Shown here: one piece after another, positions 20,049 through 27,593 of the stretch
Layout of the letters: every line of letters begins with the position of its first letter
Numbering within the stretch: the first letter of the stretch is position 1
From: an uncultured Porphyromonadaceae bacterium
GTDB lineage: Bacteria > Bacteroidota > Bacteroidia > Bacteroidales > Muribaculaceae
Reading direction: 5' to 3'
Length of the DNA stretch: 64,000 nt
Assembly (NCBI GenBank): GCA_947176295.1
Contig: CAMWQB010000001.1
Coordinates: forward strand, 4,760 to 68,759
Program-made: the position numbers and the translations under genes
Notes under the pieces: generated by a model
What the model was told of the DNA's origin: nothing
Databases searched by the model: none
The model's input: the letters and a program-made list of their open reading frames with translations, nothing else

Positions 20049-21833
20049 TTACTTCGAGAGCTTCTCCTTGAGGGCAGCCAGCGAGGCGAGGTCGCCCAGC
20101 GTGGTCTTCTCAAGAGGAGTGGTCTGAGCTGCGGGAGCAGCCTCTTCCTGCTTCTTGGCAGGACGCTTGGCAGCCTTGCGCTCAGCAGCCTTCTCCGCAC
20201 GAGCCGGATCCTCGAAGGTGCGGCTGTGGCTTACGATGATGCGCTTGTTGTCCTTGTTGAATTCGATCACCTTGAAGGGGAGCTTCTCATCCACCTTGGC
20301 CGTGGTGCCGTCTTCCTTAACGAGGTGCTTGGGCGTAGCGAAGCCCTCAACACCGTAAGGCAATGCCACTACAGCACCCTTCTCGAGCATCTCGACGATG
20401 GTGCCCTCGTGAACGGAATCCTTCGTAAATACGGTTTCGAATACGTCCCAGGGATTCTCCTCGAGCTGCTTGTGGCCGAGGGAGAGACGACGGTTGTCCT
20501 TGTCGATGTTGAGAACCTCAACTTCGATGTCGGCACCGATCTGAGTGAATTCGCTGGGGTGCTTGATCTTCTTGGTCCACGAGAGGTCGGAGATGTGGAT
20601 AAGACCGTCGACACCTTCTTCGATTTCTACGAATACGCCGAAGTTGGTGAAGTTGCGCACCTTAGCCGTGTGGCGGCTGCCGATAGCATACTTCGTGTCG
20701 ATATCCTCCCAGGGATCCTTCTTGAGCTGCTTGATGCCAAGGCTCATCTTGCGGTCGTTGCGGTCGAGAGTAAGGATCTGAGCCTCAACTTCGTCGCCAA
20801 CCTTCAGGAAGTCCTGAGCACTGCGCAGGTGCTGGCTCCACGACATTTCGCTCACGTGGATGAGACCTTCAACGCCGGGGGCAACTTCGAGGAATGCACC
20901 GTAGTCGGCCATAACCACAACCTTACCCTTCACGCGGTCGCCAACCTTGAGTTCGGGATCCAGAGCCTCCCAGGGATGAGGGAAGAGCTGCTTCAGACCC
21001 AGGGCGATACGCTTCTTCTCGTTGTCGAAATCAAGGATAACGACATTGAGTTTCTGCTCGAGAGCCACAACCTCCGAAGGATGGTTGACGCGGCCCCACG
21101 AGAGGTCGGTGATGTGAATCAGACCGTCGACACCGCCAAGGTCGATGAACACACCATAGGAAGTGATGTTCTTGACGGTGCCTTCGAGCACCTGCCCCTT
21201 TTCGAGGTGTGAGATGATTTCGCGCTTCTGAGCCTCGAGCTCGGCTTCGATCAGCGCCTTGTGCGATACAACGACGTTCTTGAACTCTTCGTTGATTTTC
21301 ACAACCTTGAATTCCATCGTCTTGCCAACGAACACGTCGTAGTCGCGGATGGGCTTAACATCGATCTGCGAGCCGGGGAGGAAAGCCTCGATGCCGAACA
21401 CGTCGACGATCATACCGCCCTTTGTGCGGCACTTGATGTAGCCCTGGATGATGTCGTTGTTCTCGAGGGCAGCATTGATGCGGTCCCAGGAACGGGCGGC
21501 GCGAGCCTTCTTGTGGCTCAGGATCAGCTGGCCCTTCTTGTCTTCCTGGTTCTCGATGAACACTTCCACCTTGTCGCCGACCTTGATGTCGGGATTGTAG
21601 CGGAATTCGCTCATGGGGATGATACCGTCGGACTTGTAATCGATGTTAACAACGGCCTCACGCTTGTTGAGGGCGATGATCGTACCTTCAATTACGTCCT
21701 TATCCTTTACGGAGTTGAGAGAGTCCTCATAAGCCTTGGTGACCTGTTCGCGGCTCTGATCGCTGACGGTTTCACCGTTCTCATAGGCTGCCCAATCGAA
21801 ATCTTCGATCGGAGAATTTTTCAATTCTGTCAT
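20049..21833 (-). CDS. rpsA: 30S ribosomal protein S1
   Basis: Repeated S1 domains (DLGGVDGLIHITDLSW, VEGLIHVSEMSW, DGLIHISDLSW). Confidence 0.97.
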   Translation of the reverse strand: MTELKNSPIEDFDWAAYENGETVSDQSREQVTKAYEDSLNSVKDKDVIEGTIIALNKREAVVNIDYKSDGIIPMSEFRYNPDIKVGDKVEVFIENQEDKKGQLILSHKKARAARSWDRINAALENNDIIQGYIKCRTKGGMIVDVFGIEAFLPGSQIDVKPIRDYDVFVGKTMEFKVVKINEEFKNVVVSHKALIEAELEAQKREIISHLEKGQVLEGTVKNITSYGVFIDLGGVDGLIHITDLSWGRVNHPSEVVALEQKLNVVILDFDNEKKRIALGLKQLFPHPWEALDPELKVGDRVKGKVVVMADYGAFLEVAPGVEGLIHVSEMSWSQHLRSAQDFLKVGDEVEAQILTLDRNDRKMSLGIKQLKKDPWEDIDTKYAIGSRHTAKVRNFTNFGVFVEIEEGVDGLIHISDLSWTKKIKHPSEFTQIGADIEVEVLNIDKDNRRLSLGHKQLEENPWDVFETVFTKDSVHEGTIVEMLEKGAVVALPYGVEGFATPKHLVKEDGTTAKVDEKLPFKVIEFNKDNKRIIVSHSRTFEDPARAEKAAERKAAKRPAKKQEEAAPAAQTTPLEKTTLGDLASLAALKEKLSK

Positions 21834-21937: not shown

Positions 21938-22025
21938 CATTTACGTAAAAATATACACTCCGCAGATTTTGCTGCATATCAAGGCCGCCTCAACAAGCAA
22001 GTTTCCGCTCAACCCGGCGGATTTT

Positions 22026-22057
22026 TTTGCCCATCTCAAAAATTATCACTACCTTAG
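22026..22057 (+). promoter_or_regulatory. Putative promoter of the Rhs array (variant -7 element)
   Basis: TTTG (22026-22029), 20 nt spacer, TACCTTAG (22050-22057); one mismatch to TAnnTTTG. Confidence 0.5.
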
Positions 22058-22078
22058 AGCGCCCAAATCTCCTCGACC

Positions 22079-23158
22079 ATGAAAAAACGCTCCCTCTTCA
22101 CCTCCAACAGAAGCTCCCAACGCAGCTACGGGCGTATTGTCAACTCGGCCTACTCATCCTATCAGCAAAACTATGTCGCCGGACGTGTCTTCAAAGGCTC
22201 TACTTTGGAATATTCTTACTTCCCCGGCGGATACTTCGATGCCGAGGGCAACGTCCATTACACCATCAACGACTATCAGGGCTCCGTCGTGATGGTTGTC
22301 GATTCCGTGGGCAAAGTCGAGCAACACAATAGCTACTATCCCTATGGCGAGTTGCACCGAAATTCTTCGGGGCAGCGGAGGATGTATATCGGCAAGGAGC
22401 TCGTCGACGAAACGGCCTCCTACGACTATGGCCCGCGAGACTTCCGCTCGGCCGGCCTCTATTGGGAAGCCCCCGACATCAAAGCCGGCGACTATCCCAA
22501 CACCGCCCCATACGTCATGTGCGCCGCAAATCCCATCCGCAATTCCGACCCGACAGGGATGAAAATATGGAAAATGAACGAAACCGGCCAAATATTAGGA
22601 ACCGAGGAAAATGCTGATATTGACGGTGATTATATTTATATTTTTAATAATGACGGTGAAGTTATTGCAAAGTCAAGTAAGCATGAAACCGGAACAATAC
22701 AATTGGATGAATCGGGAACAGTGATCGATCCTAATACAAATGAACCACTCAAGGATAATGAAGGAAAGAAGGTTACATATACATCTCTGAAAGTAAAGGG
22801 CGACGAATCTGGAGAACAGCTCTTCAAATTTCTTGCATCAGAGTTAACTGCAAAAGGATCATATATAGAATTTTCATTAATACAAGTAGGGTTTGAGGGA
22901 ACGGGCTCTAATTTCATAACAACAAGCCATCAGAAAGCCTCAGAAGCCGGAGGTGGACAATTATATAGGAATAAATTAGTAAAGGGATATGTCATTCGTT
23001 CAGATTCTCACTCTCATCCTGATAATAACACCGCAAGTAAGACAGATAAAGACACAAAGGAGCAATTTATTAAAAATCAAAAAACAAAAAATACCCAAAA
23101 ATGCATTCCCAAATTTAGGGTTCTAAACTCTTTAACCAATGATTTTTCCGAATATTAA
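22079..23158 (+). CDS. N-terminally short Rhs-core protein with a C-terminal JAB/MPN-like toxin domain
   Basis: Rhs core (NDYQGSV..EQHNSYYPYGE, YIGKE, YDYGPR, PY..CAANPI..DPTG); tip has a conserved E (YIEFS) plus HSHP..AS..D JAB metal motif. Confidence 0.8.
   Translation: MKKRSLFTSNRSSQRSYGRIVNSAYSSYQQNYVAGRVFKGSTLEYSYFPGGYFDAEGNVHYTINDYQGSVVMVVDSVGKVEQHNSYYPYGELHRNSSGQRRMYIGKELVDETASYDYGPRDFRSAGLYWEAPDIKAGDYPNTAPYVMCAANPIRNSDPTGMKIWKMNETGQILGTEENADIDGDYIYIFNNDGEVIAKSSKHETGTIQLDESGTVIDPNTNEPLKDNEGKKVTYTSLKVKGDESGEQLFKFLASELTAKGSYIEFSLIQVGFEGTGSNFITTSHQKASEAGGGQLYRNKLVKGYVIRSDSHSHPDNNTASKTDKDTKEQFIKNQKTKNTQKCIPKFRVLNSLTNDFSEY
22368..22575 (+). repeat. Rhs-core repeat, copy 1
   Basis: 22368-22551 is identical to 24306-24489; 22368-22575 differs from 25840-26047 at 9 of 208 nt (manual alignment). 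Confidence 0.95.
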
Positions 23159-23759
23159 ATATATGCCTATGAGGTTAATTTTAATTGTTTTTTGCCTTTT
23201 GGCTGAGTGCTTTACCTCCGTTTTTGCACTCGAGCCCAGTCCTGTCATAGCCGAGAAAGTGGAGGTGCGCGACAAGGCCCTTTTCGAAGCGATAGACAGC
23301 CTGATACAGACAACCGACCACAAAATGACAATCAAACCGGAATATCGGGATAAAGTACGCGACTCGTTCAACACCCTTACACTATCCCGAGATGATAGTA
23401 AATATCAAGAATCGACTGAGAATACAGCCGACGATGAATTCTGGCTCTTTGTCTATGCCGGAGAATCGTCCAATCACGATCATATCGGCGATTATTATTT
23501 CACGACACCACACTACAGGTTCGTATCCTATCATTATGATGCCAAACTATTTAAGAAAAAGCTGGGCACTAAGAAATGTATAGGCTATAATTATTTATGG
23601 TTTGATGACATCGGGCCGTCATGGTATTTTAAGATTAAGGACAGTCGGATTCTGGAGGCATATTATCATTACGACGAACTCGATGATTTTAAAGGTGTTG
23701 TTTACGACATCCTGAATAAAAAAATTGTTTCGGAAGGGTACGGAGAAATCTTTAATTAA
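23139..23759 (+). CDS. Putative immunity protein P1 (signal peptide)
   Basis: Overlaps the toxin 3' end; AT-rich; hydrophobic N-terminus (true start may be 23163 or 23169); shares W-x-F-x-I and YDILNK motifs with P3/P4. Confidence 0.6.
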   Translation: MIFPNIKYMPMRLILIVFCLLAECFTSVFALEPSPVIAEKVEVRDKALFEAIDSLIQTTDHKMTIKPEYRDKVRDSFNTLTLSRDDSKYQESTENTADDEFWLFVYAGESSNHDHIGDYYFTTPHYRFVSYHYDAKLFKKKLGTKKCIGYNYLWFDDIGPSWYFKIKDSRILEAYYHYDELDDFKGVVYDILNKKIVSEGYGEIFN

Positions 23760-23770
23760 AAAATTTAGCT

Positions 23771-24247
23771 ATGAAAAAATTATTATTGATCGCAATTCTG
23801 GCGGCAGGCTCAATCACAGCTGTTCCCTCGAAAAACCTTTCGCACGAGTGGAAACTCGTCAAAGACGAGACATTTTTCAACTATATCGATTCCATGCTCG
23901 ACCTGAACGACAGCACCCCCTTTATCGATATGGATCCGTGTGAAAGGCAGATGGTTCAGAGCGCAAAAAGATATTATAGAATCACTATCGATGACGGACT
24001 CCAAAAAGACTCCATTACAATAAATGACGGAAAACCTCACAGAATTCACATCGCACAATTTCGGTGGCTCATGCCTGATGCCAAATCGACCATAAAGCAC
24101 AAGGATCGCGTTTACTTTTTTACAGTGGATCACGCAGACGTCTTCAGGTCTTTCCATCCGAGCATCTCAAAAACTTCTTCAAAGAGCTGCCCCTGCCTTC
24201 CCGGGCAAGAATGGCAATTTGAATACACCGCTCAGGCCCGACCATGA
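23771..24247 (+). CDS. Putative immunity protein P2 (signal peptide; possibly C-terminally truncated paralog of P1)
   Basis: MKKLLLIAILAAGSITA signal; KDETFFNYIDSMLDLND resembles RDKALFEAIDSLIQTTD of P1; ends just after WQF. Confidence 0.55.
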   Translation: MKKLLLIAILAAGSITAVPSKNLSHEWKLVKDETFFNYIDSMLDLNDSTPFIDMDPCERQMVQSAKRYYRITIDDGLQKDSITINDGKPHRIHIAQFRWLMPDAKSTIKHKDRVYFFTVDHADVFRSFHPSISKTSSKSCPCLPGQEWQFEYTAQARP

Positions 24248-24259
24248 TAGCCCCCGCCC

Positions 24260-25138
24260 ATGAACACCCGCCACCGCACTCCTTCACCCCTACCCAGCTC
24301 CCGAGCGGGGCAGCGGAGGATGTATATCGGCAAGGAGCTCGTCGACGAAACGGCCTCCTACGACTATGGCCCGCGAGACTTCCGCTCGGCCGGCCTCTAT
24401 TGGGAAGCCCCCGACATCAAAGCCGGCGACTATCCCAACACCGCCCCATACGTCATGTGCGCCGCAAATCCCATCCGCAATTCCGACCCTACGGGGATGG
24501 ACATATCTGTTAAAAATTCACAAGGAGAACTTTTGTTCGTTTTTCCCTATAAAGAAGACTATACCATTGACCTTCCGGTAGATATTCCTTCAGATCCAGC
24601 CAAAATTGGAATTGGCATCGAATATGCTATAACGGGTAGCACATCAGGTGGAACAAAAATGGAAGGATCGGGAATTGCAGGCGTAGTTGTTTTTCTTGGC
24701 GGCAAAGATGCAGGATATGTTTATTCTTACGCTGGTGGAGAAATTGGTGGTGGTATAGAAGGTTCTGTAGGAGTAGGCATAAGCGTAAATAAATCGATTT
24801 TCGTAACGTATCAATCTAAAGGAGATAAAACCGATCATAATCAATTTTCGGGAAAATATGTTTCTGTCGGTGGTTCTTTTAAAGCTATCTTTGGGAAGTC
24901 CAGCCTTTCTGTGTCTAAAGGTCTACAAGAAAAGGGAACTGATGCTGTATGGACAACAGTTGCTCTATCGGAGGGCTGCGAAGCATTCCTTGGGCTAAAA
25001 TCTCCAATTTCACCTTCCATAAGCATCTGCCGGGGTAAAACAGCATTCCTCCCTGGTCAAGATGTTGGCAAACCAAAAAATTTCGCACAAAAAACTTATA
25101 GCTGGGGAAAACTTATTCAACTATGTCTTCGTAAATAA
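24260..25138 (+). CDS. Orphan Rhs module 2: short core plus a Gly-rich toxin tip of unknown family
   Basis: GQRRMYIGKE...DPTG core identical to module 1, followed by an unrelated AT-rich C-terminus. Confidence 0.75.
   Translation: MNTRHRTPSPLPSSRAGQRRMYIGKELVDETASYDYGPRDFRSAGLYWEAPDIKAGDYPNTAPYVMCAANPIRNSDPTGMDISVKNSQGELLFVFPYKEDYTIDLPVDIPSDPAKIGIGIEYAITGSTSGGTKMEGSGIAGVVVFLGGKDAGYVYSYAGGEIGGGIEGSVGVGISVNKSIFVTYQSKGDKTDHNQFSGKYVSVGGSFKAIFGKSSLSVSKGLQEKGTDAVWTTVALSEGCEAFLGLKSPISPSISICRGKTAFLPGQDVGKPKNFAQKTYSWGKLIQLCLRK
24306..24489 (+). repeat. Rhs-core repeat, copy 2
   Basis: 184 bp identical to 22368-22551. Confidence 0.95.
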
Positions 25139-25149
25139 CCGAATTTATT

Positions 25150-25716
25150 ATGGGCAAACTCTTCAAACTCTATCCTCATAATTCACCTGAGCTCAAACTC
25201 ACACGTAAACAAATGATTATATATCGCATAATTCGTTTTGTTATGGTGGTGATTTTTATAATTGGATCTTTTTTTATGATGACCCACGACATGCGAGTTA
25301 ACGATGAAAAATATAGTCTCTATAAATCACAATCTCAATGGCGCATGCTGGGGCAGATGAAGTCGTTTTCGGGGCCTCTGTATGGAGCGCGAGGGAACAC
25401 TCCGACGCAGGATCTATATCTAATTGAAATTGATGTCGATACAATCGAGTTTTTTCGCAATGATCTTCCGGAGGACAGCCCTTATTACGGTGTATATAAC
25501 AAAAACACCAAGAAGGCTTACATAACTACAACTCTATATAATTCAGAGACCAACGACACATACAAACAATCCGATCCCAAACCATATCTTTATGCAGACA
25601 CAAGAAAATCTTTTGCCCTTATTGGCTCCAACGGATTAAATAACGGAATATATATAAATATGAAACCTGCGCTTGAAGAAATGGCCAAAGACACCGCCAA
25701 CTTCATAAAATTCTGA
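25150..25716 (+). CDS. Putative membrane-anchored immunity protein for module 2
   Basis: Starts 11 nt after the toxin stop; one TM helix (IIRFVMVVIFIIGSFFMM); AT-rich. Confidence 0.6.
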   Translation: MGKLFKLYPHNSPELKLTRKQMIIYRIIRFVMVVIFIIGSFFMMTHDMRVNDEKYSLYKSQSQWRMLGQMKSFSGPLYGARGNTPTQDLYLIEIDVDTIEFFRNDLPEDSPYYGVYNKNTKKAYITTTLYNSETNDTYKQSDPKPYLYADTRKSFALIGSNGLNNGIYINMKPALEEMAKDTANFIKF

Positions 25717-25790: not shown

Positions 25791-26054
25791 ATGAAGACCA
25801 ATCGATGCAACACAACTCACTTCTGCCACCGTAATCCGGCGGGGCAGCGGAGGATGTATATCGGCAAGGAGCTCGTCGACGAGACGGCCTCCTACGACTA
25901 TGGTCCGCGAGACTTCCGCTCAGCCGGCCTCTATTGGGAAGCCCCCGACATGAAAGCCGGTGTCTATCCCAACACCAACCCATACGTCATGTGCGCCGCA
26001 AATCCCATCCGCAATTCCGACCCCACAGGGATGAAAATATGGAAAATAGAATGA
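25791..26054 (+). pseudogene. Orphan Rhs module 3 with the toxin tip deleted (DPTG-MKIWKIE-stop)
   Basis: Core repeat, then the same first five tip codons as module 1, then a stop overlapping the next ATG (ATGA). Confidence 0.75.
25840..26047 (+). repeat. Rhs-core repeat, copy 3
   Basis: 199/208 nt identical to 22368-22575. Confidence 0.93.
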
Positions 26055-26869
26055 AGACATTATTTAAGTTTATCCGCTGCAAGGCTTGCTTATGCGCTTG
26101 CCTGCTCGTTAGCGGCTTGGTTTACGGCTCTCCCCAATATAGAGTGGAACAGTCAATTGTGCATGAGGGGGAGGGATATCCGGATGGAAAGCTTTTTTCC
26201 CCTTTTTCAGTCCCCACGAAAATACAGGACGGTGAAAATGCGGGTGGAAACGACATCGTGAAATATCTCGACAAGGACATTCTCCGAGATCTACTCCTCG
26301 CGAATAAAAATGAATATAAGGGGAGTTATTTTCTAACTTCGTACGTAGCAACCAAGCCAAACAGGATCCTTGCGGAAATGATGGAAACCGTGCAGTCTAC
26401 TGATTTAGGGAAGCTGTTCAGACCTGATTGTTATATAGACAACTATCTACTGCTCACCATCTACCCGTATCCGGTCAAAATCATATCGACATTATTTGAT
26501 CCAGGTCAATACAACATCGACTTGAAATCGCCGGTTGACCTGATTTCAGAGGGCGAATATGAGGTATATCTCACCTACTGGCCGTGGCCGCATTGGAAGC
26601 CGGATTATGCGTTTGTGTATGATAATCTTTTGGTCTATACCGAGCAATGGATCAATGATGTGTTCACAGAAGAAACAGGATGCGTTACGGAACTACACCC
26701 ACATAAGCACGATATCTTTGACCGGCGGGCAGTGCGCTGGAAGTTCACAATCCTTAATGGGGAAATTGTCGGGAAATCAGTAATGTCGGAAGGCTTCGAC
26801 TACCGATACGCTGTCGTTTACGATTACAATACAAAGCAATTAAAACGCATAGACGTAAATTATGAATAA
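26051..26869 (+). CDS. Putative immunity protein P3 (signal peptide)
   Basis: Start moved to MKTLFKF (26051); clear paralog of P4 (YAFVYD..QWI..AVRWKFTI..YD..K..RID). Confidence 0.65.
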   Translation: MKTLFKFIRCKACLCACLLVSGLVYGSPQYRVEQSIVHEGEGYPDGKLFSPFSVPTKIQDGENAGGNDIVKYLDKDILRDLLLANKNEYKGSYFLTSYVATKPNRILAEMMETVQSTDLGKLFRPDCYIDNYLLLTIYPYPVKIISTLFDPGQYNIDLKSPVDLISEGEYEVYLTYWPWPHWKPDYAFVYDNLLVYTEQWINDVFTEETGCVTELHPHKHDIFDRRAVRWKFTILNGEIVGKSVMSEGFDYRYAVVYDYNTKQLKRIDVNYE

Positions 26870-27593
26870 GACACTTTTTCACAATTCCGGATTACGGCTA
26901 TATTTTCTGAAACTGACGGCATTCATATTTATTCTGGCATCCTTGTCGGTTGAGATTTCTGCACAAAAATACAGCAACGACGGATACCGACATTCGTTCT
27001 TCGTGTCGAAATATGAATGGGAATCGACAGTGGAACTCTTCCCCGATGAATTCTGCGGATACACTACGAGGCTCAAGTTTGTACATGCTCCGGAAAATAA
27101 CACTCTTTCGAAAATGCTTGACCTGATCGACAACACCGATATATCCACAGTTTCAGATGATACGGCCCACCCATCATTTTTCTATGAAATATTCGTTTAC
27201 GACAAGCCTGTCGTCATGCTATACCCGGCCATAAGTCCTATTCTCGTGGAACAACCGACGGACACCGTCGGACCTCTTGACAAAGGCTTCAAGGAAGTGT
27301 ATATAGAAGTTCAGCCATCGATGGACATAGATGCGAAATATAAATTCGTATACGACGACAAGCTTATGTTTTCCCGCCAGTGGATCGACGGGCTGTTCGG
27401 CAAAGAGATTACCGCTCAGACCCTCATCAGCCAGCCTAAGCTGCTGCCGCATGCTGTTCTATGGAAATTCACTCTAATCGATGGGACAATCAAGCAGTGC
27501 GAAGTATTAGTCGAAGACATGAGCAGGCCCGCTATCTGCATATATGACGTCCTGAACAAATCCATACGCAAAATCGACATGCCCCGACGCTGA
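26862..27593 (+). CDS. Putative immunity protein P4 (signal peptide)
   Basis: Overlaps the P3 stop; YKFVYD..QWI..AVLWKFTL..YDVLNK..KID. Confidence 0.65.
   Translation: MNKTLFHNSGLRLYFLKLTAFIFILASLSVEISAQKYSNDGYRHSFFVSKYEWESTVELFPDEFCGYTTRLKFVHAPENNTLSKMLDLIDNTDISTVSDDTAHPSFFYEIFVYDKPVVMLYPAISPILVEQPTDTVGPLDKGFKEVYIEVQPSMDIDAKYKFVYDDKLMFSRQWIDGLFGKEITAQTLISQPKLLPHAVLWKFTLIDGTIKQCEVLVEDMSRPAICIYDVLNKSIRKIDMPRR

Follow-up and report, generated by a model that had tools for sequence, protein, structure and literature searches.

An orphan Rhs cassette with a Tox-JAB-1 tip and two exported partner proteins in a Muribaculaceae-related genome

Tox-JAB-1 is a toxin domain that was defined on RHS proteins, in Bacteroidetes only, with the motif NxxxE, HxH, S and D (Zhang et al. 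2012, PMC3482391). Its strict partner in that study, Imm65, carries a signal peptide and a lipobox, and the pairing of such a tip with an exported partner has been known since then and is not new here. The same authors argued that Tox-JAB-1 is not a peptidase of the ubiquitin type, reported that the residues of the Ubl-tail tunnel are not conserved in it, and guessed a nuclease activity by analogy with RadC. No experimental paper on Tox-JAB-1 function was found in our literature search. A sister clade of JAB toxins, Tox-JAB-2 (DUF4329, PF14220), is paired with Imm-NTF2-2 (PF15631), and DUF4329 tips are routinely called RNase in the literature. Tox-JAB-2 versions of Salmonella carry PAAR, hence are T6SS-linked, and are found in over 150 serotypes (PMC10469887).

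The window analysed here is the whole 64-kb stretch of DNA, and the coordinates below are its positions, on the plus strand unless stated. It contains an array of three orphan Rhs toxin/immunity cassettes between rpsA (20049-21833, minus strand), which is the upstream neighbour, and an acyltransferase gene. Close relatives of the genome are Muribaculaceae MAGs. Pairwise DNA alignment to an unrelated metagenome contig (L002) placed the 5' boundary and leader of the array at 22021..22078: homology to L002 begins at 22021, and the genes upstream of this point are not alike. Cassette 1 (22079-24247) encodes an orphan Rhs fragment of 359 aa (22079..23158) and the two partner proteins P1 and P2. Cassette 2 (24260..25716) consists of an Rhs core fragment with a tip of an unrecognised family (24260-25138) and then of a partner that has a single TM helix (25150-25716); this tip/partner pair is also present in L002. 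In cassette 3 (25791..27593), a core fragment runs into a JAB-type tip (25791-26054) that stops after 7 residues (MKIWKIE). Two exported paralogues follow, P4 (26051-26869) and P5 (26862-27593), and both are homologous to L001_a, the ORF directly after the JAB tip of the long Rhs gene of locus L001.

A repeat search detected three copies of a core repeat, one in each cassette (22355..22575, 24293-24513 and 25827-26047). Their mutual identity is 91-100%, and each is followed by a different tip and partner. It is these repeats that serve as the array's substrate for recombination.

The 359-aa ORF of cassette 1 has an ATG start and an intact reading frame, and comprises the last ~160 aa of an Rhs shell/core plus the toxin tip. 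Its Rhs-associated core domain, which ends in DPTG, covers ORF residues 86-161 (22334..22558; TIGR03696, E=2.2e-9). The ORF aligns to residues 912-1237 of the L001 Rhs protein (partial, 5'-cut, 1257 aa), and its start falls within the shell region of full-length homologues. When it was inspected for a signal peptide and a YD-repeat cage, neither was present, and the 64-kb window contains no Rhs gene of full length. Since the ORF is 5'-truncated and lacks the shell and the signal peptide, the toxin could not be delivered from the present locus; since it lacks an export signal and a cage, we regard it as a reserve cassette for recombination. It could instead be that the ORF is expressed and acts alone, as a short toxin or an intracellular enzyme, and is no silent reserve at all. 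The intact frame with its ATG would fit this, as would the 5' boundary and the leader of ~58 nt, which are also kept in L002 in another genomic context. However, a product that starts inside the shell region of its homologues and has neither signal peptide nor Rhs cage would remain cytoplasmic, yet its partners are exported, and fragment arrays usually arise by C-terminal displacement. We therefore consider independent action of the ORF very unlikely and keep to the reserve cassette. In a search of sequencing runs, only one DNA run contained 5% of the sampled words.

The DPTG cleavage motif lies at 22547-22558, the tip begins with Met at 22559, and the stop codon is at 23156-23158. The tip (199 aa, 22559..23155) matched Pfam PF15659 (Toxin-JAB1) with E=1.5e-17 and 64.2 bits (cut-off 21 bits) over profile positions 2-85 of 87, and 426 representative clusters (50% identity level) matched the tip at E<=1e-3. 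The predicted metal/catalytic site (22868..23047) is formed by E104 in YIEFS (22868-22870) and by the motif HSHP-x5-S-x2-D with H151 (23009-23011), H153 (23015-23017), S160 (23036-23038) and D163 (23045-23047). E104, H151, H153 and D163 were invariant in two alignments (28-29 homologues), and S160 was conserved in at least 90% of the aligned homologues; its position is occupied by Gly in the two nearest relatives. The family-specific residues H124 (22928-22930) and R147 (22997-22999) are conserved among homologues as well. Related loci were collected with a 4-sequence alignment, and all 13 titled genome loci are from Bacteroidota. Judged by its sequence, the tip belongs to the known family Tox-JAB-1. 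The first-pass annotation had noticed a JAB metal-site motif after DPTG and assigned the tip to the JAB/MPN type; the motif is present as described, and the profile match and the invariant residues bear the assignment out.

The structure of the tip was predicted with AlphaFold (AF2). The model built on 29 aligned sequences had a pLDDT of 93.7 and a pTM of 0.91 (pLDDT 35 from the single sequence). In this model an N-terminal beta subdomain (~1-55) precedes a putative MPN/JAB core (~73-199). E104 is located just ahead of the strand following helix 82-97, the HxH ends strand 146-153, and the S and D open helix 161-176, an order of secondary structure that we take to be the JAMM arrangement. The tip sequence alone gave chance matches only when searched against PDB; with a tip profile, the best three PDB matches were RadC and AfJAMM, aligned over HxHP..PS..D. 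The best PDB fold matches by Foldseek were AMSH, AMSH-LP, Rpn11/Rpn8, Sst2 and EMC8, all of them weak (E 0.03-0.15, TM 0.29-0.38, none at E<=1e-3), and phage RadC-type JABs came on top in a BFVD fold search, with probabilities up to 0.96. The tip is thereby predicted to be a zinc-hydrolase domain of the MPN/JAMM fold, in which the E...HxH...S..D site is intact.

The top fold matches are eukaryotic deubiquitinases, and one family member, P0056, sits on an SpvB/TcdB/FG-GAP/RHS protein. Both observations would suit a host-directed effector of the deubiquitinase type that is carried in a Tc-like Rhs cocoon, with P1 and P2 as accessory or secretion proteins. This is highly improbable in our judgement, because every tip is strictly tied to a fast-diverging downstream partner and because orphan partner genes and poly-immunity arrays occur, all of them hallmarks of interbacterial toxin-immunity systems, and because the Ubl-binding residues are missing according to Zhang et al. 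2012. An interbacterial toxin is the reading we follow below.

P1 (198 aa, 23163..23759) starts 4 nt past the toxin stop and has a Sec-type signal peptide at 23163-23228; P2 (158 aa, 23771..24247) has one at 23771-23821. The N-terminus of P1 reads MPMRLILIVFCLLAECFTSVFA up to the predicted cut site and LEP after it, and that of P2 reads MKKLLLIAILAAGSITA followed by VPS. Export was called by a hydrophobicity heuristic with control genes, in which KD10 is the best 10-residue Kyte-Doolittle hydrophobicity; KD10 was 3.55 for P1 and 2.92 for P2. Each cut site agrees with the -3/-1 rule, homologues retain the leaders, and the signal peptides that had been read on both downstream ORFs in the first pass are confirmed.

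Homologues of the partners are rare: besides its own cluster, P1 has four homologous clusters and P2 has two (among 5.8 billion). Three contigs from two further, independent metagenome assemblies (L043/L044 and L045) show the same order tip-P1-P2. The tip is 62-63% identical there, P1 49-57% and P2 ~69% (P0008 of L045 scored), and P2 is downstream of P1 in every case. Because this order recurs in independent assemblies, P1 and P2 are taken as cognate partners of the tip. Other JAB-adjacent proteins, namely P4, P5 and L001_a, are relatives of P1, which is probably the cognate immunity protein. P2 shares an N-terminal motif with P1 and other JAB partners; its role is either that of a second protein of the immunity type or an accessory one. 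No lipobox-like motif was present near the leaders of P1 and P2, and no conserved YxC was seen in the two families. P1, P2, P4 and P5 had no match in Pfam and NCBIfam, and nothing significant was obtained for P1 and P2 against PDB sequences. Twenty other JAB partners likewise gave no Pfam match and no common family, in a Pfam copy that apparently lacks an Imm65 model.

Export is a general property of the JAB partner set. Each JAB1 tip with sufficient downstream DNA precedes an ORF bearing a signal peptide, and by the hydrophobicity threshold an N-terminal export signal was found in 37/37 distinct ORFs of the set versus 11/39 control genes, which are the other genes of the window (28%). A lipobox-like motif occurs in 6 of these 37 ORFs. 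In the main partner group, Cys residues follow the N-terminal helix and also occur at the C-terminus, a pattern that suggests disulfides. At the sequence level, the JAB partners are too divergent for whole-length unification, and the N-terminal motif is their sole link; an iterative HMM search seeded with a typical partner (L009_a) joined 5 ORFs. A motif HMM made from 12 unrelated partners placed both families ahead of all decoys, with E 3e-4 to 4e-3 for the P1 family, apart from one member at 0.03, and E 0.016-0.13 for the P2 family; the motif was defined after viewing these sequences and is supportive only.

We also looked at exported immunity as a JAB-specific trait within Bacteroidota. This idea was rejected, since most non-JAB tips in the same loci share the trait: 10/11 non-JAB Rhs tips in related Bacteroidota loci have exported or membrane partners too. 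Partner location may reflect the delivery route of the Rhs lineage rather than JAB chemistry. In one related locus (L005), the partner of a TseH-like Rhs tip is a lipoprotein.

Since exported or membrane partners are the rule in these loci irrespective of the tip, there is room for a nuclease that acts in the target cytoplasm, with exported partners that catch the toxin in the periplasm or mask its receptor or translocon, so that it is stopped ahead of the inner membrane. A nuclease was the proposal of Zhang et al. 2012, the best sequence and fold matches of the tip include RadC-type JABs, and the RNase label of DUF4329 tips points the same way. However, the label is a guess for both JAB toxin clades, and the tip keeps the residue set of a JAMM peptidase (E, HxH, S, D). 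Moreover, in E. coli K-12 the JAB and non-JAB Rhs tips are not alike in where their immunity proteins are located. The RhsD tip is DUF4329 (Pfam) and the RhsB tip has, by eye, the H-x-H...S..D look, and their partners YbbC (RhsD) and YhhH (RhsB), both PF15631, have signal peptides, whereas the RhsA partner YibA has none and is cytoplasmic. The nuclease toxins characterised so far have, to our knowledge, cytoplasmic immunity proteins, which also counts against a nuclease. Taking both sides together, we regard a nuclease tip as unlikely.

Immunity proteins are located where the toxin acts, as known from colicin M/Cmi, pesticin/Pim and Tse1/Tsi1. Because the antidotes of the JAB tips are consistently exported, the toxin would attack the cell envelope, and not DNA or RNA as guessed in the literature. 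The tip therefore probably acts in the periplasm. Periplasmic action, which had been put forward in the first-pass annotation, accounts best for the data, tempered by the exported or membrane partners of the non-JAB tips. Isopeptide-like envelope cross-links, suggested there as an example of a target, would be one candidate substrate.

The full-length Tox-JAB-1 proteins we inspected have hydrophobic, signal-like N-termini. In the six that were scanned with Pfam, RHS repeats were combined with DUF6443 or Tc-type modules, and neither PAAR nor VgrG was present. A full-length toxin made of signal peptide, DUF6443, RHS cage and JAB tip would leave the producer via Sec, and the tip would be set free in the envelope of a Bacteroidales neighbour, where it may hydrolyse an amide bond (peptide or isopeptide-type) of a periplasmic or cell-wall component. 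P1 and P2, which would be exported by Sec as well, would bind and block the tip in the periplasm and so may protect against neighbours deploying the same toxin type, and the cassette in the window would be held in reserve until it recombines with a full-length rhs gene. As a whole, this combination of a reserve JAB cassette, a Sec-delivered full-length toxin, a periplasmic amide target and immunity by P1/P2 is our best explanation, and we consider it reasonably likely.

A bolder proposal, which may well turn out to be wrong, concerns the JAB-fold polymorphic toxins as a class: neither Tox-JAB-1 nor Tox-JAB-2/DUF4329, including K-12 RhsB and RhsD, would be a nuclease, and both would be periplasmic zinc amidases or (iso)peptidases cutting an amide bond of peptidoglycan or another envelope component. 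If true, no earlier MPN/JAMM enzyme would be known that works outside the cytoplasm and acts on something other than a ubiquitin-like substrate. All known JAMM/MPN+ and RadC-type members act, as far as we know, inside cells, and we know of no ubiquitin-like substrate to be expected in the bacterial periplasm. Tox-JAB-1 and Tox-JAB-2 are widespread, and the "nuclease/RNase" guess is handed on by databases and papers. Partner export (37 Tox-JAB-1 partner ORFs, two K-12 Tox-JAB-2 pairs) contradicts this guess and points to an envelope target. The cassette in the window is itself an ordinary orphan module.

Among known systems, Tox-JAB-1/Imm65 is alike in the toxin domain (HMM and NxxxE/HxH/S/D motif), the restriction to Bacteroidetes, the position at an RHS C-terminus and the signal peptide of the partner. 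The present cassette differs in being an orphan without an Rhs body (a core fragment only, no repeats), and, compared with Imm65 by its published description, P1 and P2 lack lipobox and YxC and form a rare two-gene partner set. Tox-JAB-2/Imm-NTF2-2 also combines a JAB-fold tip on Rhs with a signal-peptide partner, but belongs to another JAB clade and another phylum, and its partner has an NTF2-like fold. With AMSH, Rpn11, AfJAMM and RadC-type JABs the tip shares the E...HxH...S..D site and the order of secondary structure. Its likeness to JAMM/MPN+ and RadC proteins does not, however, go beyond that of a superfamily (9-17% identity, Foldseek E>=0.03), and compared with JAMM/MPN+ it adds the N-terminal beta subdomain and the family-specific H124 and R147.

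Enterobacterial orphan rhs-CT/rhsI arrays arise by C-terminal displacement. The present array resembles them in its repeated core segments, with a low-GC tip and an immunity gene after every copy, and in one cassette that is reduced to immunity genes alone; it differs in that the parent rhs gene is absent from the window and in being of the Bacteroidota Sec/DUF6443 type, not PAAR/T6SS. T6SS Tae/Tsi, TseH/TsiH and colicin M/Cmi are periplasm-acting toxins with periplasmic immunity. Unlike the present tip, these toxins have established substrates (peptidoglycan, lipid II), and what they have in common with it is that exported immunity marks an envelope target.

The C-terminal part of the 359-aa orphan Rhs ORF (22079-23158, plus strand), whose divergent neighbour is rpsA (20049-21833, minus strand), had been read in the first-pass annotation as a JAB/MPN-type toxin tip starting after DPTG. 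An HMM search bore this out. The 199 residues after DPTG (22559-23155, plus strand) matched Pfam PF15659, "JAB-like toxin 1", with E=1.5e-17 and 64.2 bits (cut-off 21). All of the proposed metal-site residues were found at the checked codons on the plus strand, namely E104 in YIEFS (22868-22870), H151-S-H153-P (23009-23020), S160 (23036-23038) and D163 (23045-23047), and the catalytic residue set is intact. A full-library HMMER search recovered 426 representative clusters of tip homologues at E<=1e-3. Many of the listed matches span nearly the whole tip, beyond the Pfam core, and identity to any cluster, the window's own ORF aside, was at most about 49%. Two alignments, one with 28 homologues and the other with 29, show E104, H151, H153 and D163 as invariant and H124 as near-invariant. 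R147 was near-invariant in one of these alignments and S160 in the other, R147 being conserved in a further analysis as well. S160 is replaced by Gly in the two closest relatives of the tip, from the metagenome contigs L043 and L045, which retain E, HxH and D; judged from these sequences, the JAMM serine may be dispensable in this subgroup.

AlphaFold2 modelled the tip with a pLDDT of 35 from the single sequence and of 93.7 (pTM 0.91) with 29 tips translated from the fetched loci. In the latter model, five short strands are followed by strand 73-80, helix 82-97, strands 106-110 and 117-122, helix 131-138, strand 146-153 ending in HxH, helix 161-176 starting at S160/D163, and two last strands, an order which we take to be the JAMM site layout as in AfJAMM and AMSH. 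As to the MPN fold expected in the first-pass annotation, the model was confident and JAMM/MPN proteins ranked best, and Foldseek returned no PDB match at E<=1e-3. The best-ranked match, a weak one, was AMSH (3rzu, E=0.028, probability 0.84), and other top matches were Rpn8/Rpn11 (5u4p), AMSH-LP (2znv), Sst2 (4msd) and EMC8 (8s9s). Phage RadC-type JAB proteins were prominent in a BFVD fold search (probability up to 0.96), and a tip-family profile placed RadC (2qlc) and AfJAMM/AF2198 on top of the PDB sequences, aligned at HxHP..PS..D with E values of 0.7-1.2. Weak when taken singly, the fold and profile matches are consistent with each other and with the curated Pfam assignment; they do not separate a peptidase-like from a RadC-like JAB. 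By family the tip is a genuine Tox-JAB-1 domain, and its model is of the MPN type.

The Rhs-associated core domain TIGR03696 covers ORF residues 86-161 (profile match, E=2.2e-9) and ends in NPIRNSDPTG, with DPTG at 22547-22558. GC content is about 54% in the core and drops to 39% over the tip and the partner genes. The core segment 22355-22575 has further copies at 24293 and 25827 with 91-100% identity to the first, so the locus is a three-cassette array. In cassette 3 (25791-27593) the tip is reduced to seven residues, MKIWKIE and a stop, similar to the JAB tip start. The orphan ORF lacks the YD-repeat cage, and its N-terminus (MKKRSLFTSNRSSQ...) has no signal peptide. When the long 5'-cut Rhs protein of the fetched locus L001 was compared with the 64-kb window, the three fragments were the only matches, the first aligning with its residues 912-1237, which makes the ORF an orphan truncated at its 5' end. 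As encoded in this genome, the JAB toxin part is undeliverable in its present form and is most likely a reserve cassette, and P1 and P2, the two ORFs directly 3' of the tip, may be the genes that matter to selection. The 5' boundary of the array lies at about 22021, and its first ~450 nt are nearly identical in another locus, L002 (window 22021-22470 versus L002 430-880), where the leading core fragment is joined to the cassette-2 tip, not the JAB tip, in a different genomic context with different upstream genes. As far as sequence comparison can tell, this swapped tip behind a near-identical leader amounts to direct evidence of recent cassette shuffling. The fixed 5' boundary and the likeness to L002 also indicate that the array has recently recombined or been transferred.

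P1 (23163-23759, plus strand) begins 4 nt past the toxin stop, and P2 (23771-24247, plus strand) 11 nt past P1. Both N-termini carry a short charged segment, a hydrophobic stretch and an AXA-type cleavage site (between VFA and LEP in P1, between ITA and VPS in P2), in agreement with the putative signal peptides noted earlier; a lipobox was sought in both and none was found. The two families are very rare: out of 5.8 billion clusters, four beyond its own are homologous to P1 and two to P2. Two metagenome assemblies supplied three short contigs (L043/L044 and L045) on which a P1 homologue (49-57% identity) comes immediately after the 3' end of a JAB tip with 62-63% identity to the window tip and is itself followed by a P2 homologue (69% for P0008 of L045), so the triad has been kept while all three genes diverged. 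This synteny is the decisive result, and it points firmly to P1 and P2 as the cognate exported partners of the tip. P1 is also present without a tip of this type in L001 and L002, with P2 alongside in L001 only, which fits orphan immunity genes retained against the toxins of neighbours.

A P1-family HMM run over 1,431 six-frame ORFs found P5 (26862-27593; with P4, 26051-26869, an exported paralogue in cassette 3) at E=5e-4 and P2 at E=1.4e-3, with no decoy matches. With hhalign on mature sequences, the P1 C-terminus aligned with P4, P5 and L001_a (E=3.6e-5, probability 71%) and its N-terminus with P2 (E=1e-3). L001_a sits directly after the JAB tip of the long 5'-cut Rhs gene in L001. A motif HMM of 32 residues, its training set confined to 12 partners of unrelated loci, gave E values of 3e-4 to 4e-3 for the P1 family (one member 0.03) and 0.016-0.13 for the P2 family, the first decoy standing at 0.44; it is supportive only, because the motif was picked after looking at the sequences. 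These profile comparisons argue that P1 is distantly related to proteins directly 3' of other JAB tips.

Partner export was then surveyed in 13 genome loci (all Bacteroidota, mostly Bacteroidales, including Muribaculaceae) and 27 metagenome loci. Every Tox-JAB-1 tip with sufficient downstream DNA was followed by a same-strand ORF with an N-terminal hydrophobic leader. The leader threshold was passed by all 37 distinct partner ORFs (those 3' of the tips, a number of second ORFs, and the P1/P2 copies orphaned in L001) versus 11 of 39 other window genes, and six of the 37 had a lipobox-like motif. In the largest partner group, a Cys after the N-terminal helix and another at the C-terminus suggest disulfides. 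Its members (L016, L018, L020, L023, L024, L025, L033) are ~160-180 aa long and share h-x-V-x-D-S-x-F-L-x-G-I-D-S-L followed by Cys. The group probably has a disulfide-bonded periplasmic fold, and is possibly Imm65 of Zhang et al. 2012 (PMC3482391). A partner type quite unlike the others, a lipoprotein of 288 aa carrying a Fib_succ_major domain (PF09603, E=6.5e-30), was seen at L007 1576-2442 and L031 674-1537. A poly-immunity array lies 3' of the long JAB-tipped Rhs gene in L001 (3761-8260), in the order P4/P5-type partner, two small TM ORFs, lipoprotein, P1 and P2 homologues without cognate tip, and another exported ORF. The full-length Tox-JAB-1 proteins inspected also had hydrophobic, signal-like N-termini, and the six scanned with Pfam contained DUF6443 or Tc-type SpvB/TcdB modules with RHS repeats, PAAR and VgrG being absent. 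The Tc-toxin-like case was P0056 (1960 aa, representative library), an SpvB/FG-GAP/TcdB_mid/RHS protein ending in a Tox-JAB-1 tip; all others scanned were DUF6443 plus RHS.

Two controls cut in opposite directions. These Bacteroidota loci also contain 11 Rhs tips of non-JAB type (L004, L005, L007, L010, L011, L028, L033, L035 and window 24260-25716), and a signal-peptide, lipoprotein or TM protein follows 10 of them, so an exported partner goes with this Rhs lineage and is not peculiar to the JAB tip. This Sec/DUF6443-type lineage may deliver mainly envelope-acting toxins. Pfam found no family in nine of the ten non-JAB tips scanned, nor in the cassette-2 tip (window/L002); the single recognisable domain was TseH-like, a periplasm-acting cell-wall hydrolase type. 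It belongs to an orphan Rhs tip (L005 6410-8685, PF25218, E=1.1e-28), and the next gene encodes a lipoprotein (MSRSVFRYVLCFLAVFYFMSC...). The two form a clear envelope-targeting pair and share their array with a JAB cassette. In E. coli K-12, by contrast, YibA after RhsA has no leader and is a cytoplasmic-type Rhs immunity protein, whereas the partners of RhsD and RhsB, the PF15631 proteins YbbC (MKYSSIFSMLSFFILFAC...) and YhhH, have clear signal peptides in this small sample. The RhsD tip is DUF4329 (Tox-JAB-2, the sister clade) by Pfam, and the same H-x-H...S..D pattern was recognised by eye in the RhsB tail. A signal-peptide-like leader (MKACLLLFFYFSFICQLHG, ahead of ADV) was also seen in yibG (NC_000913.3 3768177-3768638), after the orphan Rhs fragment yibJ.

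As a rule, immunity proteins reside at the site of action of their toxins; examples are colicin M/Cmi, pesticin/Pim and Tse1/Tsi1. On this ground the tip would work in the periplasm or envelope of the target cell, a reading we consider somewhat favoured. It would be a zinc amidase or peptidase, not a nuclease, and P1, perhaps with P2, would block it by binding. Isopeptide-like cross-links as substrate are reasonable chemistry, though hypothetical. The first-pass observation was confirmed, and its interpretation in part. The JAB tip with exported partner held, and such a pairing has been on record since Zhang et al. 2012 (PMC3482391), where a nuclease function was proposed on the grounds that the residues of the Ubl-tail tunnel lack conservation. 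We found no later or experimental literature on Tox-JAB-1, Imm65 or DUF6443. Our survey reproduces and widens the 2012 record: the export of JAB-toxin partners now has a far wider base, and it also holds for the two K-12 Tox-JAB-2 pairs examined. Each of these points contradicts the putative "nuclease/RNase" label of JAB toxins and brings an envelope target within reach of tests in laboratory strains. In conclusion, the two-gene partner set P1/P2 is rare, and the cassette is otherwise of a known kind.
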